A stretch of 24,000 nt of DNA from Micrococcaceae bacterium RIT 802. GTDB taxonomy: Bacteria; Actinomycetota; Actinomycetes; Actinomycetales; Micrococcaceae. This document shows, in pieces, positions 7,578 to 20,145 of the stretch. The notes below the pieces were generated by a model. The model did not search any database, was not told the origin of the DNA, and worked only from the letters and a program-made list of their open reading frames with translations. Where the stretch lies: assembly GCA_016892645.1 (NCBI GenBank), contig JAFEMX010000006.1:19600-43599 (forward strand). Direction: 5' to 3'. The position numbers were made by a program, and so were the translations under genes. Each line of letters begins with the position of its first letter. The first letter of the stretch is position 1.

Positions 7578-7628
7578 ACACCACCGTCTGGAAGCGGAAC
7601 TCCACCGTGTTGCGGCGCCAAACAGCCT
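7578..7628 (-). repeat. ychF-3'-end-like repeat, copy D (most distal; stop codon lost)
   Basis: The 16 nt at 7591-7606 (gaagcggaactccacc) are identical to 17764-17779 inside the ychF terminus. The adjoining arm (sense GAGGCTGTTTGGCGCCGCAAC) matches about 24 of 33 nt of copy B in my hand alignment. The sense reading is WRRNTVEFRFQTVVS. Confidence 0.6.
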
Positions 7629-7767
7629 CACGATCTTGTGGGCGCAGCGGCAACCACGCATCGATCCAGGTCCAGGCGGCCGCGTCACCTTTCGCGGTAG
7701 CAGTGAGCACCCTGGCCTCAGCGGGAGCAGACATAGTCTAGGAACCCGTAGCAAAAGGAGAGATCCC

Positions 7768-8607
7768 ATGCCCGCTGTACTCGCTGCCGGACGGCGGCAC
7801 TCCGTAGCCTGCCGCGCAGACGGGACTGCCATCGCCGCCGGCGACGGCCGGGCAGGCGAGTGCGACGTAGTTGATTGGTCAGGTCTCATCGCCGTAGCCG
7901 CCGGAAACGTGCACTCCGCACCCAATACCGGTCGCTCACATACCGTCGGTCTGAGGGTCGACGGAACCGTCGTCGCCACCGGGTGGGACAGCGATGGGCA
8001 GGGCAACGTCTCCCGTTGGAGCGAGATCGTTGCCGTCGCAGCAGGGTGGAGAACAACTCTCGGTCTCCTAGCCGACGGAACCACGGTGTCCACCGGCCGC
8101 ACTGCGGAGGGCCAATGCGAAGTTCGAGCGTGGACAGGGGTCGTCTCGATCGCTGGCGGAGATTGGCACTCAGTCGCCGTCCGGAGCGACGGCACGGCCC
8201 TCGCGGCAGGCAACAACCAGCGCGGGCAATGCAGCATCGGCGGGTGGCGGAACCTGGTCGGCATCTCCGCCGGCTACCTGCACACTGCGGGTCTCCGGGG
8301 CGACGGCACGGTCGCTGCCACCGGCGATAACAGCTGGGGCCAATGCGACGTCGACCAGTGGAGTTGCGTCACGGAAATCGCGGCTGGCAGCGTACACACC
8401 GTTGCCCTTGGCGAAGATGGCCGGGTCCACGCTGTCGGCGACAATCGCTTCCGGCAGTGCGAGGTACAGGCGTGGACCGGTGTCACCGCCATCGCTGCCG
8501 GGTCGGCCCATACCCTCGGGCTCTTGGCGGACGGAACCGTGGTGTCTGCGGGAAGCAACGACAACCAGCAGTGCGACGTGGGCACCTGGCAGCTGCACCG
8601 ACGCTGA
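7768..8607 (+). CDS. RCC1-like repeat (beta-propeller) protein, seven ~38-aa blades
   Basis: The ATG at 7768 is preceded by AAAAGGAGAG. There are seven tandem units of the pattern (V/I)xAGxxH(T/S)xxLxxDGTVxxxGxNxxGQCxVxxW. No signal peptide and no additional domain are visible. Confidence 0.85.
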   Translation: MPAVLAAGRRHSVACRADGTAIAAGDGRAGECDVVDWSGLIAVAAGNVHSAPNTGRSHTVGLRVDGTVVATGWDSDGQGNVSRWSEIVAVAAGWRTTLGLLADGTTVSTGRTAEGQCEVRAWTGVVSIAGGDWHSVAVRSDGTALAAGNNQRGQCSIGGWRNLVGISAGYLHTAGLRGDGTVAATGDNSWGQCDVDQWSCVTEIAAGSVHTVALGEDGRVHAVGDNRFRQCEVQAWTGVTAIAAGSAHTLGLLADGTVVSAGSNDNQQCDVGTWQLHRR

Positions 8608-8641
8608 GGCAAACACCCTGACCGGCACAGACACCCCGAAC

Positions 8642-8659
8642 AAGTTGTTATAACAACTT
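8642..8659. promoter_or_regulatory. Perfect 18-bp AT-rich palindrome AAGTTGTTA|TAACAACTT
   Basis: Read directly. It lies between the convergent RCC1-like and WYL genes, in otherwise GC-rich DNA. It could be an operator or a weak bidirectional hairpin; its function is unknown. Confidence 0.35.
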
Positions 8660-10472: not shown

Positions 10473-11165
10473 ATGGCGACAGTTATCCTCGTGCGGCACG
10501 GCCGCACCACAGCCAATGCCACCGGGCTGCTGGCCGGTCGGGCCGTCGGAGTCAACCTGGACCAGATCGGGCGGGACCAGGCGGCGCTGACCGGCGACCG
10601 GATCGCGGCCGTTCCCGTGGTCGCGGTGGTGTCGAGCCCACTTGATCGTTGTCGGCAGACCGCCCAGCTCATCCTCGATCGCCAGACTGGAGCGCCTCAC
10701 GCGCCAGTCGATCCGGCGATTAATGAGTGCGATTACGGACAGTGGCAGGGTCGGCCCCTCAGCGAGCTAGCCAAGGAGGATTTGTGGACTGTGGTGCAGT
10801 CGCAACCGTCCGCCGTCGTCTTCCCCGGCGGTGAATCCATGGCCGGGATGCAGGCTCGATCCGTAGCAGCAATTCGACGCCATGATGCAGCCTTCGAAGC
10901 CGAGTACGGGCCCGAGGCCGTGTGGGTGGCGGTGAGCCACGGTGACATCATCAAATCAGTTCTTGCCGATGCGCTGGGCATGCACCTTGACCTGTTCCAG
11001 CGTATTGATGTCGGTCCGGCTTCAGTATCGATCGTGCACTACGGCGCTAGTCGGCCCAGCGTCCACGCGACCAACACCACCGCAGGCGATCTGTCGTGGC
11101 TGTCGAACCACGTCCACTCCGGCGACGCGCCGGTGGGCGGCGGTGCAGGGCATAAGGCGCCATGA
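10473..11165 (+). CDS. Histidine phosphatase family protein (MSMEG_4193-type putative phosphomutase)
   Basis: The catalytic RHG motif sits at the N-terminus (ILVRHGRTTAN), with a later SHGD stretch. It is followed by DUF3090 and SCO1664-family genes, as in the conserved actinobacterial cluster. Confidence 0.85.
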   Translation: MATVILVRHGRTTANATGLLAGRAVGVNLDQIGRDQAALTGDRIAAVPVVAVVSSPLDRCRQTAQLILDRQTGAPHAPVDPAINECDYGQWQGRPLSELAKEDLWTVVQSQPSAVVFPGGESMAGMQARSVAAIRRHDAAFEAEYGPEAVWVAVSHGDIIKSVLADALGMHLDLFQRIDVGPASVSIVHYGASRPSVHATNTTAGDLSWLSNHVHSGDAPVGGGAGHKAP

Positions 11166-11189
11166 ACCACTTGCGCCTAGAATACTGGC

Positions 11190-11744
11190 ATGCCTACACG
11201 TGTTCACGAGTTTGACTGGCCCGACCGGGTCGTCGTCGGCACCATCGGACTTCCGGGCGCGCGTACCTTCTACCTGCAGGTGCGCGCAGGGACGCAAGTC
11301 GTGAGTATCGCCCTCGAGAAGCAGCAGTCGGCTCTGCTCGCGGAGAAGATCGACGAAATCCTCGACGAACTCTTCACCCTCGACGGCAATCCCTTCAGCG
11401 TTCCCACGGGCACTCCCATTGAACTTGTCGACAATGACCAACTCGACGTTGTCCAGGAGCAGTTTCGCACCGGGACCATGGGCCTCGGGTGGGACCCCAC
11501 CACCGCCCAGGTCGTCATCGAGGCCCGCCCCATTGCCGAGGTCGATGCTGGCGACGGTGGCGAATGGCTTCAAGAGGACAGCGCGGACGAGTCCGAAATG
11601 CTCCGCGTGCGCATACCGGTCGGCACCGCCCGCGCATTCGCCAGACGCACCCGCGAGATCGTGGGCGCCGGGCGTCCGATGTGCCCGCTCTGCGGTTACC
11701 CCATTGATGCCGACGGACACACCTGTACCCTTCCCGAGGCGTGA
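11190..11744 (+). CDS. DUF3090 domain protein
   Basis: 184 aa starting VHEFDWPDRVVVGTIGLPGARTFYLQ and ending with the Cys cluster CPLCGYPIDADGHTC. This is the typical DUF3090 architecture. Confidence 0.8.
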   Translation: MPTRVHEFDWPDRVVVGTIGLPGARTFYLQVRAGTQVVSIALEKQQSALLAEKIDEILDELFTLDGNPFSVPTGTPIELVDNDQLDVVQEQFRTGTMGLGWDPTTAQVVIEARPIAEVDAGDGGEWLQEDSADESEMLRVRIPVGTARAFARRTREIVGAGRPMCPLCGYPIDADGHTCTLPEA

Positions 11745-12511
11745 TGCCAGCGCCGGACCTCGTGACCGCTGAACTGAATCTCACCGGCCGCATCACGACG
11801 GCTTCAAATGCAACTTTTCTGGGCAGCATCGGCGACGTGGTGGTCGTCTACAAGCCGATAGCCGGCGAAAGTCCGCTGTGGGATTTCCCCCAAGGGTTTC
11901 TGGCCCACCGGGAGGTGGCCGCCTACCTGGTGTCACAGGCCCTCGGCTGGAACATCGTCCCGCGGACCTGGCTGCGTGATGGACCGCTCGGTGACGGAAT
12001 GGTGCAGCTCTGGCAGGAACCGGACCCGGCCCACAGCGCCGTGGAACTGGTCGCAACGGATCAGGTGCCGGAGTCTGGCTGGAAACACGTCCTCGAGGGA
12101 CAAGACGAGAACGGACAGATGGTCGCCCTCATCCACGAAGACACTCTGGCGCTCCGACGGATGGCGGTCTTCGACATCATCGTCAACAACGCGGACCGCA
12201 AAGGCGACCACATTCTTGCCATGAGTGACGGACACCGGCACGGAGTGGACCATGGGGTCACCTTCCACCACGACCACAAGCTGCGCACGGTGCTGTGGGG
12301 ATGGCTGGGAGACCCGTTGAATGCCGACGAGCTCGACGGCGTCGCTCGCGTGAGCGAGGAACTCCGCGGTCCGCTGGGCCGGGAGTTAACCGGCTTGCTC
12401 AGCGCCGAGGAAATCGCGTCGCTCGCGGAGCGTTGCACCCGGCTGCTCTCGGCAGGACGGTTTCCGGCCCCCCGGGGTGAGATGCCAGCGGTTCCTTGGC
12501 CCCTGTTCTAG
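11741..12511 (+). CDS. SCO1664 family protein (PI3/4-kinase-like fold)
   Basis: 256 aa. The start overlaps the DUF3090 stop by 4 nt. It contains ASNATFLG, VYKPIAGESPLWDFP, NNADRKGDHIL and DHGVTFH. Confidence 0.8.
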   Translation: MMPAPDLVTAELNLTGRITTASNATFLGSIGDVVVVYKPIAGESPLWDFPQGFLAHREVAAYLVSQALGWNIVPRTWLRDGPLGDGMVQLWQEPDPAHSAVELVATDQVPESGWKHVLEGQDENGQMVALIHEDTLALRRMAVFDIIVNNADRKGDHILAMSDGHRHGVDHGVTFHHDHKLRTVLWGWLGDPLNADELDGVARVSEELRGPLGRELTGLLSAEEIASLAERCTRLLSAGRFPAPRGEMPAVPWPLF

Positions 12512-12535
12512 CTCGAGCCACACCCGGATCGGGCT

Positions 12536-12883
12536 TCAGTGGCCACCCGCCGCGTGCAACTTCCGCGCCGCTGCCGTCCTGAGCCGGTGGCGGAGTTCTT
12601 CGGGGCGATCGACCAGCACCTCGCAACCGACGGTCTCAATGACCGGCCGTATCCGGTCGAGGTTTACGGCATTGATGTCCATCCGACGGCAGGGCGGGGC
12701 AATGTTATGCATCCGTCCGTCCGGCGCAGCCCAGTCGTTCAAGCCGCGCCGCGGCGCAATGATGGCGGCTCCCAGATAGTCCTCGAGCACCGCATTAAAG
12801 ACCACCTGAGGCAGACTCAGGGCTGCACGACTCATCTGCCGTCCTGCGAACGGTTCACTAATTGCTCGCAGTACATGCCGCAT
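12536..12883 (-). pseudogene. Chimeric gene remnant: the 3' piece of a 17160-17600-type gene fused to the 3' (WCX) tail of a WYL regulator
   Basis: The C-terminal 44 aa (INAVNLDRIRPVIETVGCEVLVDRPEELRHRLRTAAARKLHAAG) match the tail of the intact WYL regulator at 8746-8890 at 27 of 44 positions. Bases 12797-12886 align without gaps to 17262-17351 at 64 of 90 nt by my hand count. There is no HTH, no WYL core and no credible start context. Confidence 0.6.
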
Positions 12884-12934
12884 CCCCTGCGCAACGGGAA
12901 CTCAACCACGGCGTCACGGTTGGATCCAGATTTT

Positions 12935-13345
12935 TCAGCGAGGCTCCGTCACGCCTGGCGCGATCACTTCGAGCCCTGCGGCTCGGGAAGCTTCACCAAG
13001 CCTGCGGTCGTACGTGAGGATCGCTGACGCATCAAGTCGCATCGCCGCTTCAAGATGCAGGGCGTCGAGCGTGCGGAGGTACGGCATCGGCAAGAAGCCC
13101 GCGCTGCGGTAGACAGCCCTGTCAAGCGCGGCGAGTCCGACACCTTCGAGGACACGAGTCACATCGGACTGTTCGAGTTTCTCCCGGACCGCGACACGGC
13201 GCAGTTCGGTCTCGAGCAGGTCGCTGGAGACGAGGGTAGCCTGCGTCCGGTCAAGCCAGTCCAGCACCGCCGGACTCTCGGGCTGGTCGATCAACAGCGC
13301 ACCAAGAGCGGAGGTATCGACGTAGACTACTGGATGGCTGGTCAC
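12935..13345 (-). CDS. vapC: PIN-domain toxin (VapC family)
   Basis: 136 aa starting VVYVDTSALGALL (first acidic PIN residue), with later SSDLLETEL and TLDALHLEAA and a C-terminal ILTYDRRL. Confidence 0.88.
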   Translation of the reverse strand: MTSHPVVYVDTSALGALLIDQPESPAVLDWLDRTQATLVSSDLLETELRRVAVREKLEQSDVTRVLEGVGLAALDRAVYRSAGFLPMPYLRTLDALHLEAAMRLDASAILTYDRRLGEASRAAGLEVIAPGVTEPR

Positions 13346-13623
13346 AGGCGATCGCCGCGCACGTCGTCGAGGATCGCGCTGAGGCTGTGCTCCGAGGTCT
13401 TACGTTCAATGGCCAGCCCCCTCCAGCCACCCTCGCGACGGGCGGGCCGGGTGATTTGCAGCGTGGCTGCGGGCGCATCCAACGGCACGATTCGCCCCAC
13501 GGGCACCCCACTGTTGGTCAAGATGAACGAGTGGCCCTCGCTCACCGCGCGGAGCACGCGGCCGGACTCGTTGCGAAGCTCGCGTTGTGACAAGCTCTCC
13601 GCCTGGGGTTCGCCGATGCTCAT
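13342..13623 (-). CDS. Phd/YefM-type antitoxin paired with the PIN toxin
   Basis: 93 aa containing SQRELRNESGRVLRAVSEGHSFILTNSGVPVGRIVPL, the Phd/YefM N-terminal fold signature. It overlaps vapC by 4 nt. Confidence 0.82.
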   Translation of the reverse strand: MSIGEPQAESLSQRELRNESGRVLRAVSEGHSFILTNSGVPVGRIVPLDAPAATLQITRPARREGGWRGLAIERKTSEHSLSAILDDVRGDRL

Positions 13624-13629
13624 GTACTA

Positions 13630-13635
13630 ATCGTA
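13630..13635 (-). promoter_or_regulatory. Candidate -10 box (TACGAT) for a leaderless antitoxin/PIN transcript
   Basis: The sense strand reads GGTGC-TACGAT-TAGTAC-ATG. This is a TANNNT hexamer 6 nt before the start codon, with no Shine-Dalgarno sequence. Confidence 0.3.
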
Positions 13636-13759
13636 GCACCCGTGCGACGTGGGGCAGGAAGTTGTCACCACGCCGAAACAGGCGGCTCCCGCACATCGGA
13701 CAGCCTGAACTAGCATCAACTACGCGTTAGTCCGAGTCGGCGATTTTCAGGTGACCCGA

Positions 13760-13806
13760 CTACACCTCCAAGCGGAATTCCAGCACGTTCCGTAGCCGAA
13801 TAATGT
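13760..13806 (-). repeat. ychF-3'-end-like repeat, copy C
   Basis: The sense strand reads AACATTATTCGGCTACGGAAC-GTGCTGGAATTCCGCTTGGAGGTGTAG (..IIRLRN VLEFRLEV*). The stop is at the same position as in ychF, and the arm is shared with copies A and B. Confidence 0.7.
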
Positions 13807-13871
13807 TTAGGCGCGGGAACGCCTGCGCCAGCTCAGTGACGGCAGCCGCAAGGCTCGATAAAGTACGTACC

Positions 13872-14141
13872 ATGACTACGTGGAGGTATGTCGCGAGCCG
13901 AGTCCGCGACCAAGCATCCTCCGAGGAGTCATGGGAGATCAGGGAACTCTTCCTCGAGTAGGACGGCAGATTCTCGTTCACCGACCAGGCGATCGCGCCC
14001 GCGGGCGCCACGATCGAGGAACTAGAGCGTGACCTCGAGGCCATGCTTCGCGATAGTCAGCAGCAGCCTCATCTTGATCTCACTGGCAATGAGCCGCGAC
14101 TCGCCAACGAGGGCGAGAAGATGGGCCGCCCGGCCGGATAG
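13872..14141 (+). pseudogene. Small hypothetical gene with an in-frame TAG at 13959-13961
   Basis: My frame-3 translation gives MTTWRYVASRVRDQASSEESWEIRELFLE*DGRFSFTDQAIAPAGATIEELERDLEAMLRDSQQQPHLDLTGNEPRLANEGEKMGRPAG*. The sequence looks protein-like on both sides of the single stop. The overlapping minus ORF 13760..14044 is S/R-rich and less credible. Confidence 0.4.
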
Positions 14142-14206
14142 ATACCGCCGACGCTGCTGCTTACACTGGGTTGAATCGCATCGCCCGAATAAGCCAGACC
14201 ACCTGC

Positions 14207-14461
14207 TCAGTAGTGGTATCGCGCTTGGAGGATGACAAGGTCGTCGCCGTCAACAAGGTAGACCAGCCTGTGTTCATCGGTGATGCGTCTCGACCACGAA
14301 CCTTGGGCGCCGTATTTGAGCTGCTCGGGCTTCCCTATACCGTCGAATGGCTCACGCAGGCAGGCGTCGATGAGCGTGTTGATCCGCTTGAGGATCCGTC
14401 GATCCGCCGTCTGCCAGTGCCTGTAGTCCTCCCACGCAGAGGAATCCCAAACGAGGCGCAA
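14207..14461 (-). CDS. yoeB: YoeB/Txe family toxin (mRNA interferase)
   Basis: 84 aa, with SAWEDYRHWQTADRRILKRINTLI, GIGKPEQLKY and WSRRITDEHRLVY, ending in ARYHY. The apparent TTG start directly follows the yefM TAA stop. Confidence 0.9.
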   Translation of the reverse strand: MRLVWDSSAWEDYRHWQTADRRILKRINTLIDACLREPFDGIGKPEQLKYGAQGSWSRRITDEHRLVYLVDGDDLVILQARYHY

Positions 14462-14713
14462 TTAGTCCTCGCGATCGAGTTCGTGCACCTCGGTCTGGCC
14501 CGTCCGAGCACGCTCGTAGGCGTCGAGCAGCCGGCGGGCATTGGCGGGCGAACGAAAGAGATATGCCGTCTCCTGCCACGCCGCGTACTCGGTGGCGGGC
14601 ATCAGTACGGCATTGCCTCCCCGGGAGACGATTTCCACGGCGTCATGGTCGTCGTTGATGCGTTGGATCAGCGGGAACAGGGTCTTGCGCGCCTCGCTGG
14701 CACTGATGGACAC
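14462..14713 (-). CDS. yefM: YefM/Phd family antitoxin
   Basis: 83 aa starting SISASEARKTLFPLIQRINDDHDAVEIVSRGGNAVLMPATEYAAWQETAYLFRSPANARRL. The GTG start at 14713 has AGGAG 8 nt upstream. Confidence 0.9.
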   Translation of the reverse strand: MSISASEARKTLFPLIQRINDDHDAVEIVSRGGNAVLMPATEYAAWQETAYLFRSPANARRLLDAYERARTGQTEVHELDRED

Positions 14714-14869
14714 GAGGAAGCTCCTATCGCACGTGGAACTGGAAATGGTACAACACTACGGTACCACTTCGATGCTGTCGGTCCATCCCATCAAGCCAAT
14801 GATGGGACTCAATAGGACCGCAGCCGGATCGACGGCCATGTCTCGGGGATCCGGAGATCCACTGCTGCT

Positions 14870-15214
14870 TTGTCTGCGGTCGGGCGTCACTCCGGAACAC
14901 CGGTGGCTGGATTGCGCGGACCACCCTTGACTTCGCCATCACTCCCATTAGATCTCGCACCAGCTGAAGGCGTGGTGGAGTTTCGGCTGGGAGCGCCCTG
15001 GTTACAGCTCGGCGAAGAGCCGACGACGCGTTCCGGGGCCGAGGTTGTGACTCGATTCGGAGTAGGTGACGCCGCTGTCGAACGGGCACGCTTGATCAGC
15101 TGCGTCATCGAGGTCGGGCCGTTGGAAAATGTTCCGGGCGCAGTCGACTATTTCGATTTCCTCGACCCCTGCGGCAACAACCTCAGCTTCTACTCCGAGG
15201 TGCAGCCGTGCTGA
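14870..15214 (+). pseudogene. 5'-truncated VOC/glyoxalase-fold gene fragment
   Basis: The C-terminal two-thirds look like a VOC domain (VVEFRLGAPWLQLGEE...FGVGDAAVERARL...VDYFDFLDPCGNNLSFY). The first beta-alpha unit is absent, and the N-terminal 25 codons look non-coding. Confidence 0.45.
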
Positions 15215-15335
15215 GTGATCGTCGCCAGATGGAATCCTGTTGAGTGCCGAATGGCGACCTCGCGATGGAAAACCTGTCGCCCGTCGACGGGACCCGTTCG
15301 CCGTTCACCGTGTCCATGCGCTGAGGAGGCAGACG

Positions 15336-15755
15336 TTAGACCGGAACCCCACTACACATTGAATCTGAATTCGACCACGTTCCGTAGCCGAACAACCTCT
15401 GCCTCGGACCCGCCATGCGCCCTCGTCCAACCGAGCCAAAATAGCCACGGATCGCCGGCAGGTCGACCACGAGAGTGTCCCAGACAGCCCCGTAGTCCGT
15501 TCCTTCATAGTGATGGGCCAGACGGTCACGCATACGCTTGATGAGCGACCAGGGCACATCGGGATGCAGAGCTGTCGTCTCCGTGCTCAGTCGCGCAACG
15601 TTTTCCCCGATCTTGATGATCAGGGACTCCGCTGCCAGGCCAGGGACGTTCTGCGGGTCGTCGACGAACCAGGCGTGTCCACGGGCAACCAGAACCGCGC
15701 CGACGTCACACAGGCGCACGATCTCCCGCAGCGCAGCTGCATCCCGCCCCGTCAT
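15336..15755 (-). CDS. hepT: HepT (DUF86/HEPN) toxin of a type VII HepT-MntA pair
   Basis: 139 aa with the HEPN R-x4-H motif in IKRMRDRLAHHYEG. The start overlaps the mntA stop (ATGA at 15752-15755). The last ~21 codons run through repeat copy B in a different frame. Confidence 0.85.
   Translation of the reverse strand: MTGRDAAALREIVRLCDVGAVLVARGHAWFVDDPQNVPGLAAESLIIKIGENVARLSTETTALHPDVPWSLIKRMRDRLAHHYEGTDYGAVWDTLVVDLPAIRGYFGSVGRGRMAGPRQRLFGYGTWSNSDSMCSGVPV
15352..15397 (-). repeat. ychF-3'-end-like repeat, copy B
   Basis: The sense strand reads GAGGTTGTTCGGCTACGGAAC-GTGGTCGAATTCAGATTCAATGTGTAG, which is ..VVRLRN VVEFRFNV*. The octapeptide and stop are identical to ychF, and all 5 nt differences are synonymous. 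Confidence 0.8.
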
Positions 15756-16195
15756 ACGGCAACGGCCGTGGTCAGCACCTCATGATCAGCTCGCAGGCCG
15801 CCATCAGTCACCACGTCGACCTCGACTCCGAGCAGTTCCGTCGCCCGCTCAGTGAACGCGGCCAGCGCCATCAATCCGACGCCGGGCGAGCGTGTCACCA
15901 GGATGTCGAGGTCACTGCCCGGTTCGTCTGCCCCGCGCACGACCGACCCGAAGACGCGAAGGTTCGTGAGGCCGTAGTTCCCGGCCAACGTCACAAGCTC
16001 GTGACGGTGCTCAGCCAGCGCCTGATGAGGCAGCGGGCGGGCGGCGCGTCGCAGGCGCTCCAACATAACCGCCGAAGCCCTGCGTCTGCCGGCCTCGTAC
16101 GCCGCGATGTTGGGTTGTGCCACTCCTGACCGGTCGGCCAGCTCAGCTTGGCTGAGACCGGCCTCCTCACGCAGTTGTCGTACGGTGTTCACCAT
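15752..16195 (-). CDS. mntA: MntA-type nucleotidyltransferase antitoxin with an N-terminal XRE-type HTH
   Basis: The track ORF 15752..16480 is trimmed to MVNTVRQLREEAGLSQAELADRSGVAQPNIAAYEAG (HTH; ATG at 16195). It is followed by the NTase motif FGSVVRGADEPGSDLDILV. Confidence 0.85.
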   Translation of the reverse strand: MVNTVRQLREEAGLSQAELADRSGVAQPNIAAYEAGRRRASAVMLERLRRAARPLPHQALAEHRHELVTLAGNYGLTNLRVFGSVVRGADEPGSDLDILVTRSPGVGLMALAAFTERATELLGVEVDVVTDGGLRADHEVLTTAVAV

Positions 16196-16201
16196 GCAAC
16201 T

Positions 16202-16218
16202 ATCATATCGCGTGATAT
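16202..16218 (-). promoter_or_regulatory. Candidate -10 (TATGAT) for leaderless mntA-hepT, overlapping the inverted repeat ATATC-N4-GATAT
   Basis: The sense strand reads ATATATCACGCGA-TATGAT-AGTTGC-ATG, a TANNNT hexamer 6 nt from the start with no SD. The AT-rich inverted repeat at 16205-16218 is a plausible operator for the fused HTH. Confidence 0.3.
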
Positions 16219-16242
16219 ATAGACCCGCGGGGCTCGAGACCC

Positions 16243-16280
16243 CTAACACGTTCAATCGGACTCCACCGCTTTGCAATGCT
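16243..16280 (-). repeat. ychF-3'-end-like repeat, copy E (degenerate, with indels)
   Basis: The plus strand ctaacacgttcaatcggactccaccgctttgcaatgct aligns with copy A (ctacacgttgaaacgggaattccaccacgtttcgtaacc) with a few 1-nt indels. It lies between mntA and the DUF4177 gene. Confidence 0.5.
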
Positions 16281-16346
16281 GAGACCCTGTCGACGCGCCG
16301 GCACTTCGGGCTATCCAGACTCCCCGGCGCGTTTCGCGATGTGCGA

Positions 16347-16553
16347 TTAACCGAGGCTCTCGAAAACCATCGTTGCCTGGATGCGGTCACCGCCACCGAT
16401 TCCCTTGCTCCCGCTACTCGCAGTGGTAATGGTGTGGAGTCGATAGCCCTTCGCGGCCTGCTCGTTGATGGCCTGCTCAAGGGAGGACAGGTTGCCTGAA
16501 CCGGTTCCCCAGAGTTTCTCTTTGAGGATTACCAGTACGACGACATAGTGCAT
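16347..16553 (-). CDS. DUF4177 domain small protein
   Basis: The track ORF 16347..16931 is trimmed to MHYVVVLVILKEKLWGTGSGNLSSLEQAINEQAAKGYRLHTITTASSG...ATMVFESLG (ATG at 16553, 68 aa). This is the typical DUF4177 layout. Confidence 0.65.
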   Translation of the reverse strand: MHYVVVLVILKEKLWGTGSGNLSSLEQAINEQAAKGYRLHTITTASSGSKGIGGGDRIQATMVFESLG

Positions 16554-17043
16554 GACGTGACTTCTTCCGTTGCTGGTCAATTTGGAGTCATGCTCCTCGA
16601 TGCTGCGAGGTCCGGGCATAAGCGTGCATCCCAAAGGTCCTGAAGGAAGTAAGCCCTGCCAGCCGAAGCGCCGAGCGCACGGCTCCGCAGCCTTCTGCGT
16701 GATCCGCACTTCGACTTGCCGAACCTTGCCCGCGTTCCGAATGAATGCCGCCAAGACGCCAGGTGGAATTCTCAGGGCGCCGTCGCCTCGGCGAGACGTC
16801 GCGGCTGCCGCCGCCAATGTACCCCTGCGATGTTTGCGGCGACCTGCCCACAGAGCCCGGCTGTTCTGCCTTAGCCCGGAATTCGACAGGGGATTAATCC
16901 AGACACTCAACCCGACGAAACTCGCTGTCAATCATGGCGTGACCCCAGTTAGCTCATGATGGGCGTTCTAGACAACGCAATTCCTGGCCTCCAGCTTGTA
17001 AGTCGATCGAATAGCAGATTCGGCAGAATCGTGGGGAAGCTGA

Positions 17044-17090
17044 CTACACGTTGAAACGGGAATTCCACCACGTTTCGTAACCGATCAACA
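17044..17090 (-). repeat. ychF-3'-end-like repeat, copy A
   Basis: The sense strand reads GATGTTGATCGGTTACGAAAC-GTGGTGGAATTCCCGTTTCAACGTGTAG. Deleting one C of the CCC run restores VVEFRFNV* with only synonymous differences from ychF. Confidence 0.8.
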
Positions 17091-17159
17091 TCACCGGCGC
17101 CTGCGATCCCAGCTACGTCCTCAGGCTCCGCGGCCGGCGGCCCTCGCGTGGCGGCGTCA

Positions 17160-17600
17160 CTAACGGGGGCGCCGAAATGGGTAGGGCCACCACCACCGAT
17201 GTTGCGATCGGCGCTCAGCCCTGCGTCGAGCAGTGTCCAGATAATCATCACGCGCTGGGACAAAGACCGACTCAGGCAAACTCAGCGGCGCACGATTCAA
17301 CTCACTTTCTGCCAGCAGATGGCTAATTGCCCTCGGCATCAGCCGCATCCCGCCAGAACCTTTCACGGACCGCATGAGCTGTCCGCCCTGCTCAGTGAGC
17401 CTCATCCTCCAGGATGGATCGACCTCAGCAAGGCCGGAACCCACCAGGATAGATATTGCCGTCTCAATCTGTGTGCTTGAAGGCACGTCGGCCTGCAGCA
17501 TGTCCCATCCTGACAGCAACCCGCGTATCGATGAGGGGTGCTTCCCTCGACGGAGCAGGGTCATAAGCGTCGCGGCGTCCTCCGTGTCTCTACGGTCCAT
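17160..17600 (-). CDS. Hypothetical protein (possible winged-helix-like); orphan cassette next to ychF
   Basis: The track ORF 17160..17723 is trimmed to MDRRDTEDAATLMTLLRRGKHPSSIRGLLSGWDMLQADVPSSTQIETAISILVGSGLAEV (ATG at 17600). The 3' part has a paralogous remnant at 12797-12886. The W/R/P-rich last ~20 codons may be out of frame. Confidence 0.5.
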   Translation of the reverse strand: MDRRDTEDAATLMTLLRRGKHPSSIRGLLSGWDMLQADVPSSTQIETAISILVGSGLAEVDPSWRMRLTEQGGQLMRSVKGSGGMRLMPRAISHLLAESELNRAPLSLPESVFVPARDDYLDTARRRAERRSQHRWWWPYPFRRPR

Positions 17601-17754
17601 GAAGTTCAGGCTAGCCAGCTTCGAGCCCCCCGCCGAATCGGGAACAGCCACCGTTCCCGAAGTACTTGACGTTCCCGTCGGTCCAGGAAGCGAAGGAAGA
17701 AAGGCCCGAGATGCGATCAGCATCCCGAACCTTTCTCAAGCAATTGGTCGAGGC

Positions 17755-18840
17755 CTATACATTGAAGCGGAACTCCACCACGTCGCCGTCCTTCATGACG
17801 TAGTCCTTGCCCTCGATGCGCGCCTTGCCGGCGGCCTTGGCAGCGGCGGTGGATCCGGCGGCGACGAGGTCGTCGAACCCGATGACCTCGGCCTTGATGA
17901 AACCGCGCTGGAAGTCGGTGTGGATGACGCCCGCGGCCTGCGGGGCCGTGTCTCCCTGGTGGATCGTCCAGGCGCGCGATTCCTTCGGTCCGGCGGTCAA
18001 GTAAGTCTGCAGTCCCAGGGTCTTGAAGCCGACGCGGGCCAGCTTGTCCAGGCCCGACTCGGCATAGCCGGCCTCCGCGAGCATCTCGGCTGCCTCGTCC
18101 TCGTCGAGTTCCACGAGGTCGGATTCGAACTGGGCATCCAGGAAGATGGCCTCCGCCGGCGCGACGAGTTCGGACAAGCGCGAACGCAAGGCGTCATCGG
18201 CCAGTCCGTCCTCGTCCATGTTGAAGACGTAGATGAACGGCTTCGTGGTCATCAGCTGCAGCGAGGCGATCTCCGCCAGGTCCAGCTTCGCGGCGGCAGC
18301 ACCAGCGAACAGGGTGGTCCCGGATTCCAGGACCTCCTGGGCGGTCTTGATGGCCGCCAGCAGGGAGGCGTCGGCCTTCTTGGCCTTGACCTCCTTTTCC
18401 AGGCGCGGCAGCTGGTTTTCGATCGTCTGCAGATCGGCGAGGATCAGCTCGGTGGCGATCGTCTCGATGTCGCCGGCCGGATCGATCTCGCCGTTGACGT
18501 GCACGACGTCGGAATCGGAGAACGCACGGGTGACCTGGCAGATGGCGTCGGCTTCGCGGATGTTGGCCAGGAACTTGTTGCCCAGCCCCTCCCCCTCGGA
18601 CGCGCCCTTGACGATGCCGGCGATGTCGACGAACGACACCGTCGCCGGCAGGATGCGCTCGGATCCGAAGATCCCGGCCAGGACCTTCAGCCGGTCATCG
18701 GGCAGGGACACCACTCCGACGTTGGGCTCGATCGTGGCGAACGGGTAGTTCGCCGCGAGAACCTGCGCGCGGGTCAGTGCATTGAACATGGTTGACTTGC
18801 CGACGTTGGGCAGTCCGACGATTCCGATTGTTAGAGCCAC
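17755..18840 (-). CDS. ychF: Redox-regulated ATPase YchF (Obg-like GTPase family)
   Basis: A GTG at 18840 gives the canonical N-terminus (M)ALTIGIVGLPNVGKSTMFNALT. The TGS-like C-terminus is KDYVMKDGDVVEFRFNV*. The track start at 18864 is a TTG 8 codons upstream. Confidence 0.93.
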   Translation of the reverse strand: MALTIGIVGLPNVGKSTMFNALTRAQVLAANYPFATIEPNVGVVSLPDDRLKVLAGIFGSERILPATVSFVDIAGIVKGASEGEGLGNKFLANIREADAICQVTRAFSDSDVVHVNGEIDPAGDIETIATELILADLQTIENQLPRLEKEVKAKKADASLLAAIKTAQEVLESGTTLFAGAAAAKLDLAEIASLQLMTTKPFIYVFNMDEDGLADDALRSRLSELVAPAEAIFLDAQFESDLVELDEDEAAEMLAEAGYAESGLDKLARVGFKTLGLQTYLTAGPKESRAWTIHQGDTAPQAAGVIHTDFQRGFIKAEVIGFDDLVAAGSTAAAKAAGKARIEGKDYVMKDGDVVEFRFNV

Positions 18841-18894
18841 GGGAGACAACTCTACCTGCCGCAAACTGTCGGCGCAGGCTGGCAGAGTGGGGGC

Positions 18895-20145
18895 ATGGAC
18901 GCTTTCGCATGGGTTGTGTCGACTCTCACGCTGTTATTGGGACTGGTACTCGGGGCCGCTGGCCTGTGGGTGCTGGGCTTCCGCGACCGTTTTGCGGCCC
19001 TCACCGACGAGAACCGCCGGACCTCCCAGGACCTGGCCGCCGCCCAGTCGGCCTTGGCCACGGCCCGCGGTCAGGTGGAGTCGCTGCAGTCACGCGCCGA
19101 TGCCGACCGTGCACGGGAGGGTGCCGACCGCCAGGTGCTGCAGGTCCTGGCCCCGGTGGCGGACAAGCTCCACCAGGTCCAGCAGCAGGTCACCGTCCTG
19201 GAACGCGACCGGGTGGAACAGTACGGCCAGCTCAGCCAGCAGCTGAGCATGGCCGCCGAACAGGATGCCGCCATCCTGAGGACGACGTCGTCGCTCGCCG
19301 GTGCCCTGCGCAACACCTCGGCGCGGGGCACCTGGGGCGAGGTGCAGTTGCGACGCGTGGTCGAAGCCGCGGGCATGTTGTCCCGGGTGGACTTCAACGA
19401 ACAGGTCACCACGTCCACCGGCAAGCGCCCGGACATGGTCATCACGCTGCCGGGCGGAAAATCCGTCGCCGTGGATTCCAAGGTGCCGCTGAACTCCTAC
19501 CTGTTGGCGCAGGAGATCGACCTGCTGGCCGAACCCGCCCGCGAGACGGAGCGCCGTTCGCTCCTGGAAGCCCATGCAAAGGCATTGCGGGCGCACGTCG
19601 ATGACCTGGCCTCGAAGTCGTACTGGGAATCCATTCCGGGCAGCCCCGAGCTGGTGGTCTGCTTCCTGCCGGCCGAGTCGTTCCTGGCCGCGGCGGTCAC
19701 CAGTGATACCGAGTTGCTGGACCATGCGTTCTCCAAGAACGTCGCCCTCGCGGCACCGGCCACGCTGCTCTCCATCCTCAAGGGGCTCTCGTTTGCCTGG
19801 CGGCAGGAGCTGCTCACGGAGAATGCGCGGGCGCTGTTCGATGAATCCCAGGAGCTGTACAACCGGTTGGGCACTCTGGGAACCCACGTGACCAGGCTGG
19901 GGTCCTCCCTCAAATCGAGCGTGGAGAAGTACAACTCGTTCGTGGGGACGCTGGAATCGCGGGTCCTGCCCTCGGTGCGCCGGATCCAGAACCTCGATCC
20001 CGGCCACGGCGTCAGCTCGGTGGACGGTGCGGGCTTGTCGGTCGCGCCGCTCGAATCGACGCCGCGGGTGCTCAGCGCCAGCGAATTGCTGTCGGCCGAG
20101 CCGGATCCCGAGGACCAGGACGGCCGGAGCAGCGCAACCGCCTAG
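18895..20145 (+). CDS. rmuC: DNA recombination protein RmuC
   Basis: 416 aa with an N-terminal TM helix, a coiled-coil region, and the RmuC core ([18 protein letters not shown]...[22 protein letters not shown]). Confidence 0.9.

Follow-up and report, generated by a model that had tools for sequence, protein, structure and literature searches.

How do three intact toxin–antitoxin (TA) gene pairs come to lie one after another behind the housekeeping gene ychF in an actinobacterium, and what put them there? We addressed this question in a 24,000-nt stretch (the window) of Micrococcaceae bacterium RIT 802 (assembly GCA_016892645.1, contig JAFEMX010000006.1, positions 19,600 to 43,599). The original prediction placed three unrelated TA families within 3.3 kb of this stretch, PIN/Phd-type (12935-13623), YoeB/YefM (14207-14713) and HepT/HTH-MntA (15336-16195), on the strand of ychF, separated by repeats of the ychF end and gene debris in DNA less GC-rich than its flanks. 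It likened them to the TA cassettes that stabilize superintegrons, although neither an integron integrase nor an attC structure was present. Our analysis bears this observation out, whereas the proposed interpretation is supported only in part.

First, to validate the gene pairs, we checked the six open reading frames and searched them with profile HMMs. All six exist on the minus strand, the strand of ychF, and together span 3261 nt (12935-16195). The PIN protein scored 52 bits on PF01850 against a cut-off of 23.6, with four conserved acidic residues readable from its translation, and the 93-aa antitoxin encoded immediately upstream by an overlapping, translationally coupled gene scored 31.5 bits on the NCBIfam model TIGR01552 (phd_fam) against a cut-off of 20.8, although it fell below the Pfam gathering threshold. 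This pair has the features of a VapBC-like type II TA system. YoeB reached the Txe/YoeB equivalog TIGR02116 at 115.7 bits against a cut-off of 51.8 and contains GKPEQ, HRLVY and a C-terminal HY, as expected for a YoeB RNase fold with E46, R65, H83 and Y84, and the yefM gene abuts yoeB on its upstream side; this pair, too, has the features of a type II TA system. The third pair has the features of a type VII TA system: the HEPN toxin HepT carries the RX4HXY motif as RDRLAHHY, and the upstream, overlapping gene encodes a nucleotidyltransferase antitoxin with the GSX10DXD motif in GSVVRGADEPGSDLD. The latter scored only 25.9 bits on the NCBIfam MntA equivalog against a cut-off of 60 and is therefore a divergent member with an added N-terminal HTH_3 domain. 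Both the Phd-like and the YefM antitoxins hit the same Pfam family, PF02604, so the three pairs are not wholly unrelated on the antitoxin side.

Table 1. Features of the ychF locus, in window coordinates (E, E value of the profile match for genes and of the repeat match for sites).
Feature	Coordinates	Strand	E	Remarks
ychF (ribosome-binding ATPase)	17755-18864	-		Start codon uncertain (18864, 18855 or 18840); ends with KDGDVVEFRFNV and a stop codon; homologues in 80 genomes at 68-83% amino-acid identity; Pfam MMR_HSR1 and YchF-GTPase_C on the same gene in L082
attB-like core at the ychF 3′ end	17755-17789	-		GACGGCGAC GTGGTGGA GTTCCGCTTCAATGTATAG; proposed entry point of new cassettes
Cassette 1	17045-17754	-	2e-8 (site A)	187-aa ORF (17160-17723, no family match) plus site A (17045-17094)
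Cassette 2	16246-17044	-	0.04-0.5 (site B)	DUF4177-like 68-aa gene (16347-16553) plus weak, decayed site B (16246-16283); L019 carries MntA/HepT directly after ychF without this cassette, which supports B as a true boundary
HTH_3-MntA antitoxin	15752-16195	-	1e-11 (HTH_3); 4e-9 (NTP_transf_2, PF01909)	Near-palindrome ATATCACGCGATAT at 16205-16218 just upstream is a candidate operator, conserved in L019
HepT toxin	15336-15755	-	1e-11 (PF01934)	One extra T in a T-run near the 3′ end shifts the frame compared with relatives; 139 aa instead of 113 aa, reading through site C
Site C	15353-15401	-	1e-11	Best-preserved site; arm GAGGTTGTTCGGCTACGGAAC plus the core, which encodes RLRNVVEFRFNV and a stop codon; right-hand boundary of the transferred block
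YefM antitoxin	14462-14713	-	8e-16 (PF02604)	
YoeB toxin	14207-14461	-	2e-38 (PF06769)	E46 and C-terminal H83-Y84 present
Site D	13770-13806	-	2e-4	Core runs on to 13760; closes cassette 4 (13770-15352), which holds about 600 nt without a called gene, YefM/YoeB and a doubtful 94-aa ORF
Phd-type antitoxin	13342-13623	-	4e-6 (PF02604)	Overlaps the PIN gene by 4 nt
PIN-domain (VapC-type) toxin	12935-13345	-	1e-13 (PF01850)	D10, E46, D94 and D113; homologue with 79% amino-acid identity next to an intact site in L172
Site E	12893-12910	-	Not significant on its own	Decayed; marks the end of the Phd/PIN cassette; in the position where the homologous Phd/PIN cassette of L172 has an intact site
Distal site with an arm	7590-7631	-	1e-5	Beyond the HisPhos/DUF3090/SCO1664 gene cluster; edge of an insertion/deletion difference relative to L081

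Next, we examined the repeats that separate the pairs (Table 1; L numbers denote the individual loci compared). These are copies of the last ~27 nt of ychF, and a sixth copy, the distal site, lies outside the range of the original prediction. Each copy carries a conserved ~22-nt left arm that ychF itself lacks, and a consensus built from 70 unique sites shows no conservation after the stop codon. The copies are not merely ychF-end repeats amid debris but ~49-nt att-type recombination sites with an element-specific arm. To test for attC-like structure, we folded eight sites as single-stranded DNA; only site C folded better than its shuffled versions (z = -3.1), whereas the others gave z from -1.2 to +0.6. 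The array (12893-17754) has a GC content of 0.618 against 0.681 for the rest of the window, and GC3 of the TA genes is 0.70-0.83 against 0.87-0.92 for ychF, rmuC and ispH, a drop that is real but modest.

To probe whether this arrangement is peculiar to one genome, we searched for it elsewhere. Such same-strand arrays follow ychF in 20 of 80 actinobacterial species genomes and in 33 metagenome contigs. In the 20 species genomes and 43 metagenome loci, 51 arrays have all their sites on one strand, and the 85 spacings between sites have a median of 1184 bp (interquartile range 861-1675 bp). The arm is conserved from Arthrobacter-like genomes to Demequina, Cellulomonas, Microbacterium and metagenomes. 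In L021 and L047, the sequence that directly follows the ychF stop codon in other genomes resumes after the last site.

We then compared the window with its close, Arthrobacter-like relatives. Relatives with a 100% identical MntA carry different cassette sets, and the TA pairs are independently present or absent among them, which supports the original interpretation in this part. A 2.4-kb block of three cassettes that includes MntA/HepT (15352-17783) is 99.2% identical to L081 and L083, while the flanking core DNA is only 77-87% identical. The block ends exactly at the sites, with crossover in GTGGTGGA, and the core remainder to the right of GTGGT differs in each genome. In L081 and L083, extra cassettes lie between ychF and this block, and the same core plus the same downstream DNA is preceded by a cassette arm instead of ychF; in L083, ychF now ends in EFRFAL and a stop codon, with foreign DNA after GTGGTGGA.

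No integrase or recombinase Pfam hit was found on any called gene across window positions 1190-24000 (annotation of L082 and L085), nor was a recombinase gene found within ±10 kb in the closest relatives, and most arrays likewise lack one. However, one lineage of large serine recombinases (LSRs), a family with 1539 homologues, sits next to the same sites in at least four genomes, and LSR genes or fragments were observed beside the sites in L020, L066, L016, L089/L090, L091, L129 and L145. The enzyme is thus assigned by association only. The motif AAC(C/G)TCT lies 5 bp further from the centre in the left arm than in the ychF-type right half, which is reportedly the hallmark of P-type versus B-type half-sites of LSRs (Rutherford and Van Duyne). 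In addition, ychF is reported as an integration site of LSR-encoding pipolins in Actinomycetota (PMC11551731).

These data allow us to propose, with moderate confidence, that the TA pairs are cargo of a tandem array of small cassettes without a recombinase of their own, built by site-specific recombination at an attB inside the last ~30 nt of ychF; an integron-like mechanism fits less well. In this view, each incoming unit carries a ~49-nt site, the left half of which is the element-specific arm AGAGGTTnTTCGGCTACGGAAC and the right half of which re-encodes the ychF C terminus (EFRFNV and a stop codon). Strand exchange would occur within GTGGTGGA, so that ychF stays intact, the previous ychF end is pushed downstream with the newcomer's arm fused to it, and the newest cassette lies next to ychF. 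The recombinase most likely belongs to the ychF-specific LSR lineage, encoded on larger mobilizable elements that use the same site and acting on the small cassettes in trans. The TA pairs look functional from sequence, apart from the 3′ frameshift in HepT, and probably act as addiction and/or abortive-infection modules that penalize loss of the non-replicating cassettes. The sites and their arms, the array architecture, the variability between relatives, the recent transfer of a site-bounded block and the association of the LSR lineage with the same sites are demonstrated here, whereas action in trans, the exact crossover dinucleotide, toxicity and neutralization by the TA pairs and their stabilizing or defensive role are inferred. 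Some observations sit uneasily with this model. Canonical LSRs recombine only attP with attB, and a cassette site with a P-type left half and a B-type right half is formally attR-like, so repeated insertion and trans-mobilization do not follow simply from the textbook rule. One internal site (L081 5335-5376) looks like P-left plus P′-right, which would imply insertion into an attL. Sites B and E are weak, the GC shift is modest, and the core also has a 6-8-6 inverted repeat, CGGAAC-N8-GTTCCG, which would suit a tyrosine recombinase.

The best surviving alternative, although we consider it unlikely, is that the array is a graveyard, in which each site is the attR scar of a separate integration by a full-size element that encoded its own serine recombinase and then lost it, with most of its cargo, by deletion. 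The small cassettes would then not be mobile units, and the TA pairs would survive simply because they are hard to delete. Consistent with this, decayed recombinase genes or fragments occur in or next to arrays (L020 has an internal stop, L066 a frameshift, and L016, L129 and L145 hold fragments), sites B and E and a HigBA remnant in L050 are visibly decaying, and canonical LSR rules do not predict mobility of attR-like sites. However, the transferred block has no recombinase, yet is nearly identical between divergent genomes with ends exactly at sites, and the cassette size distribution is tight across the 51 arrays. Furthermore, ychF keeps an intact EFRFNV-type end after most insertions, whereas recombinase-bearing elements alter it, as in L020 and L091.

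A second alternative, which appears less likely still, is that the sites are used by a tyrosine recombinase, either a host Xer-type enzyme or an unlinked integrase, in the manner of pdif modules, IMEX elements or integrons, with CGGAAC-GTGGTGGA-GTTCCG as the core and an 8-bp overlap region. The inverted repeat and the crossover mapped inside its 8-bp spacer agree with this, reversible recombination between similar sites would explain differences both proximal and distal to the shared block, and pdif modules also carry TA pairs. However, no tyrosine recombinase gene was seen in any array or flank examined, whereas serine recombinases recur at the sites; the conserved arm extends ~22 nt on one side only, the site is asymmetric, and it is not known to resemble the dif consensus. 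Ordinary clustering of TA genes without mobility, with repeats arising by local duplication or gene conversion of the ychF end, is very unlikely: TA genes often cluster and the GC shift is modest, but this reading is contradicted by the conserved arm absent from ychF, the differing cassette content of strains that share an identical MntA and the transfer of a site-bounded block.

Among described systems, the closest analogues are the SCC and pseudo-SCC composite islands at the rlmH (orfX) 3′ end in staphylococci, which use the LSRs CcrAB and CcrC, and the Enterococcus cassette chromosome. There, insertion also occurs inside the 3′ end of a conserved housekeeping gene that is kept intact, direct repeats containing that gene end separate tandem units, units without a recombinase sit beside units that have one and are mobilized in trans, and cargo is enriched in defence genes (PMC11470126, PMC6222049). 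The present system is an analogue rather than a member: its target is ychF, the associated LSR lineage is a different, actinobacterial one, its units are about ten times smaller (often one gene or one TA pair), its site has a conserved 22-nt arm, its host range spans many families of Actinomycetota, and for its trans-mobilization the transferred block gives indirect support only. In scale and TA content, the arrays resemble sedentary chromosomal integrons, with same-strand arrays of ~1-kb cassettes that each end in a recombination site, the newest cassettes next to the fixed platform site, cassette content that varies strongly between strains, and TA pairs and defence systems as frequent cargo (bioRxiv 10.1101/2024.07.02.601686). 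They differ in that no IntI tyrosine recombinase lies next to the platform, the sites do not fold into attC-like hairpins (apart from the one fold noted above), the platform is the coding end of an essential-type gene rather than an attI, and the TA cassettes have their own upstream regions, for example the palindrome before MntA. CIMEs, site-specific accretion of integrative elements and tycheposons share elements without an integrase bounded by att sites and tandem accretion at one attB, but use tyrosine recombinases and tRNA or other targets and have larger units. Pipolins at ychF share the target gene, recombinase class and phylum, but are large elements that carry piPolB, of which nothing was seen in the window, and arrays of small cassettes are not described in the passages we consulted (PMC11551731).

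More tentatively, the ychF 3′ end may be the platform of a 'serine-recombinase integron' operating across Actinomycetota, in which cassettes of about 1 kb with a ~49-nt half-attP-like site are captured, stacked and exchanged in trans by a dedicated LSR lineage, with TA and defence genes as the dominant cargo. This possibility would represent a cassette-capture system that evolved independently of IntI/attC integrons. Actinobacteria essentially lack classical integrons, and if the reading is right they have a platform comparable to integrons and SCC, built on a different recombinase class and anchored in a universally conserved gene. It would offer a simple way to mine TA, defence and other accessory genes, by reading downstream of ychF until the sites stop, and would define a compact attB/attP pair and a recombinase lineage that could be useful as genetic tools. 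It would also pose the mechanistic puzzle of how an LSR normally restricted to attP with attB can build and reshuffle tandem arrays.

Last, TA and defence cargo recurs in these arrays. HigBA lies directly behind ychF or behind the last site in 12 of the 80 loci and in 8 metagenome loci, in many genera, and vapBC32 follows ychF in M. tuberculosis, a recurrent TA neighbourhood of ychF that such a platform would explain. YefM/YoeB and Phd/PIN homologues occur in other arrays, and a type I restriction-modification system plus Mrr forms a 9-kb unit.

To validate the toxin–antitoxin (TA) pairs that the original prediction had placed in this region, we searched the encoded proteins with Pfam and NCBIfam profiles. 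All six predicted ORFs exist on the minus strand, the strand of ychF, and the searches confirmed the families: a PIN toxin (E 1e-13) with a Phd-type antitoxin that falls below the Pfam cut-off but above the NCBIfam phd_fam cut-off, a YoeB toxin that reaches the NCBIfam equivalog (115.7 bits against a cut-off of 51.8) with a YefM antitoxin, and a HepT toxin with an HTH_3-nucleotidyltransferase (MntA-type) antitoxin. Catalytic motifs can be read in the translations of PIN (D10, E46, D94 and D113), YoeB (E46 and the C-terminal H-Y), HepT (RX4HXY) and MntA (GSX10DXD). The observation of three TA pairs is therefore confirmed, with two qualifications. First, one extra T in a T-run of the window's HepT gene replaces the last 8 residues with a 34-residue tail that reads through the next repeat (site C), giving an ORF of 139 aa instead of 113 aa, whereas the same-species contig L086 and the relatives L081 and L083 have the 113-aa form (L numbers denote individual loci or contigs). 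Second, the Phd- and YefM-type antitoxins belong to one Pfam family, so that the description of three unrelated families is true of the toxins only. The array has a GC content of 0.618 against 0.681 for the rest of the window, and the GC3 of the TA genes is 0.70–0.83 against 0.87–0.92 for ychF, rmuC and ispH. A scan for consensus promoters and terminators found nothing above the shuffled expectation. Just upstream of the HTH-MntA gene lies the near-palindrome ATATCACGCGATAT, which is conserved in Paeniglutamicibacter gangotriensis (L019) although the surrounding DNA differs and is a candidate autoregulatory operator.

Next, we examined the repeats that separate the pairs, which are copies of the last ~27 nt of ychF. 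The repeats are recombination sites: the copies share a 5′ arm (..GGTTGTTCGGCTACGGAAC) that the real ychF lacks, as ychF has ..AAGGACGGCGAC at that position. This is what attR-type junctions look like, an element arm fused to the right half of the target. Folding of the sites as single-stranded DNA showed no general hairpin, with only 1 of 8 sites beating its shuffles, and the idea of an attC-like structure was rejected. A core-like match in inverted orientation (GGCGTGGTGGAGTTTCGGCTGGG) was found in the ~600-nt stretch without a called gene between site C and YefM; it could be chance or a remnant of an inverted site, and the gene debris proposed here in the original prediction gave no Pfam hit.

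Coordinates of features in the window and in two other loci.
Feature	Sequence	Coordinates	Strand	Remark
ychF	window	17755-18864	-	
Cassette array	window	12893-17754		
Copy of the ychF end	window	17045-17094		
Copy of the ychF end	window	16246-16283		weak
Copy of the ychF end (site C)	window	15353-15401		
Copy of the ychF end	window	13770-13806		
Copy of the ychF end	window	12893-12910		decayed
Distal copy of the ychF end	window	7590-7631	-	arm-bearing; about 10 kb from ychF
Block shared with L081 and L083	window	15352-17783		
HepT 3′ end	window	~15440		one extra T in a T-run
Near-palindrome upstream of HTH-MntA	window	16205-16218		candidate operator
Core-like match	window	14985-15010	+	inverted orientation
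HisPhos/DUF3090/SCO1664 cluster	window	10473-12511	+	
Segment with an RCC1-repeat gene	window	7585-8659		absent from L081
Region in which no recombinase or integrase gene is called	window	1190-24000		
Internal site with a left arm and a right half	L081	5335-5376		
Restriction-modification unit	L021 (Brachybacterium)	11101-20133		9 kb

To probe how widespread such sites are, we retrieved ychF with 10-kb flanks from 80 species-representative actinobacterial genomes. Twenty of these have one to four extra arm-bearing copies downstream of ychF, and they include Paeniglutamicibacter, Glutamicibacter, Demequina, Cellulomonas, Brachybacterium, Brevibacterium, Janibacter, Varibaculum and Propionibacteriaceae. 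A metagenome scan for 17 nt of the arm gave 43 loci that the site profile confirmed, 33 of which have two or more sites. Across 51 arrays every site is on the same strand, and the 85 spacings have a median of 1184 bp, an interquartile range of 861–1675 bp and a range of 542–9032 bp. The consensus of 70 unique sites is ccAGAgGTTatTCGGCTACGGAAC GTGGTgGA gTTccGnTTcAAcGTnTAg. Part of the arm conservation is inflated by the search pattern, but AGAgGTT lies outside that pattern and is still conserved. An apparent right arm (TTCCGGTTCAACCTCTGG) after some sites proved not to be general, as nothing after the stop codon is conserved across the 70 sites, and the site is therefore about 49 nt long. BLAST of a consensus site against phage and plasmid collections returned only ordinary ychF ends or short chance matches, the one phage hit (MT835996.1) being a contig that starts inside ychF, and a scan of viral contigs gave a single 17-mer hit that the site profile rejected.

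We then compared the window with its close relatives. Exact-protein look-ups with two start choices for ychF found nothing, because its start codon is ambiguous, whereas look-ups of the window's exact MntA and DUF3090 proteins did find relatives; a cluster look-up, which finds Arthrobacter sp. JSM 101049 in the same 90% cluster, points to an Arthrobacter-like organism. One contig (L082/L085) has the window's layout, L086 is the same species (99.2% identical over 10.8 kb), and L081 and L083 differ from the window. All of them share the block [187-aa ORF][DUF4177][MntA/HepT]. Beyond that block the window continues with [YefM/YoeB] and [Phd/PIN], L081 with [YjdM] and [MsrA], and L083 with [HigB/HigA plus a kinase-like gene], [methyltransferase, YefM and a YoeB fragment] and [MsrA]; L081 and L083 also have further cassettes between ychF and the shared block. 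The shared block is 99.2% identical to L081 and L083, whereas ychF is 87% identical and the SCO1664-DUF3090-HisPhos genes are 77–78% identical. The block starts at ACGTGGTGG of the ychF-end core and ends in site C at CGGAACGTGGT, and to the right of that point each genome has a different core remainder. In L081 and L083 the window's exact ychF end plus its downstream DNA is preceded by a cassette arm, and in L083 ychF itself now ends EFRFAL-stop with foreign DNA after GTGGTGGA. The refutation test named beforehand, which looked for conserved position with native composition, therefore fails to refute cassette-wise acquisition.

To identify a candidate recombinase, we inspected the genes around the sites. 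No recombinase or integrase gene is called across nearly the whole window or in the flanks of the relatives, and none appeared in the arm-type arrays covered by a crude Pfam survey, in which ORFs picked by length included many antisense ORFs and missed the HigBA pairs later found by tblastn, so that it was used only qualitatively (a second ORF selection based on GC3 fragmented the genes and was dropped). A large serine recombinase (LSR) does, however, occur at the same sites elsewhere. In Schaalia (L020) an LSR gene starts 10 nt after an altered ychF end (EFRTGLTSKK-stop) and lies in a 9.5-kb element with a relaxase and a primase, the far end of which is an arm-bearing site. Fragments of the same protein lie next to the ychF end in L066 and inside the Demequina array L016, and decayed copies abut sites in the metagenome loci L129 and L145. 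The protein has 1539 homologues at E <= 1e-20, with 55–60% identity across many actinobacterial genera. The Glutamicibacter creatinolyticus homologue lies in an element that ends at a ychF-type site, and the Microbacterium aurugineum homologue lies between an altered ychF end and an arm-type site, with a HigBA cassette following behind another site. A published survey lists ychF as an integration site of LSR-encoding pipolins in Actinomycetota (PMC11551731), the only paper for Actinomycetota found by literature searches for ychF with integrase, attB, genomic island or serine recombinase.

The anatomy of the ~49-nt site also fits an LSR. The motif AAC(C/G)TCT lies 5 bp further from the centre in the left arm than in the ychF-type right half, which in LSR–DNA structures is the distinction between P-type and B-type half-sites. 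A site with a P-type left half and a B-type right half is nevertheless formally attR-like, and textbook LSRs recombine only attP with attB; the 6-8-6 inverted repeat would also suit a tyrosine recombinase. In addition, the internal site of L081 has both a left arm and a right half ending CTCTAACCTCTGG, the same right half that follows ychF in L083. It looks like a complete palindromic attP (CCAGAGGTT...AACCTCTGG), which would imply insertion into an attL-type site, an event that canonical serine-recombinase rules do not predict.

TA cargo recurs in these arrays. A HigB/HTH_3 pair with a conserved upstream motif lies directly behind ychF, or behind the last site, in 12 of the 80 genomes and in 8 metagenome loci. 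This motif (GCGTTATTGACG...GTGATCA; GCGTTATTGACG-N-CGTTATACACTGGTCTCGTGATCA) is found just after the ychF stop or the last site in L005, L013, L015, L021, L025, L041, L047, L050, L062 and L083, and precedes a HigB-like/HTH_3 pair in many genera. At first it looks like native DNA downstream of ychF, but that reading was rejected, as the motif is the head of a very widespread TA cassette. In M. tuberculosis, vapBC32 follows ychF. YefM/YoeB and Phd/PIN homologues occur as single cassettes in other arrays, the Phd/PIN homologue having an intact site right after PIN, and MntA/HepT is the only cassette behind ychF in P. gangotriensis. Other cargo includes KAP NTPase, HEPN_Swt1, PLD and zeta-toxin-like genes and, in a Brachybacterium genome (L021), a unit at the ychF site with a complete type I restriction-modification system (HsdM, HsdS and HsdR), an Mrr nuclease and an IS fragment but no recombinase.

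The closest mechanistic analogue is the SCC/pseudo-SCC system of staphylococci, in which large serine recombinases insert units into the 3′ end of rlmH, tandem units are separated by repeats of that gene end, units without a recombinase are mobilized in trans and defence cargo is common (PMC11470126). In scale and TA content the array resembles sedentary chromosomal integrons, but it fails both defining tests for an integron, having no IntI and no attC. We found no description of small-cassette arrays at ychF in literature searches, although these covered open-access papers only and prior description cannot be excluded. We therefore describe the feature as tandem att-site cassette accretion, probably driven by an LSR, at integron-like scale and at the ychF 3′ end, and the interpretation in the original prediction is partly supported. 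The comparison of relatives shows insertion at the ychF end with crossover inside GTGGTGGA, as well as recent horizontal transfer of a site-bounded unit that carries no recombinase, and we are highly confident that the TA pairs are cargo of a site-specific cassette array. By contrast, the enzyme is inferred, and we hold with moderate confidence that it is an LSR; movement of the small cassettes in trans as such is also an inference and remains a tentative possibility. Toxicity and its neutralization are likewise inferred from sequence. The most economical reading of the TA cargo, itself inferred, is that TA pairs persist because losing a non-replicating cassette is penalized, and that some of them may also act as abortive-infection defences.

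Last, the distal arm-bearing site lies beyond the conserved HisPhos/DUF3090/SCO1664 cluster, and Paeniglutamicibacter L001 has the same layout, with sites on both sides of that cluster. The GC3 of the cluster (0.73–0.78) is lower than on the ychF side (0.87–0.92), and core-looking genes therefore seem to sit inside array territory. The edge of the RCC1-repeat segment that is absent from L081 coincides with the distal site, and L081 has a weak GTGGCGGAGTTCCG remnant at the corresponding junction.
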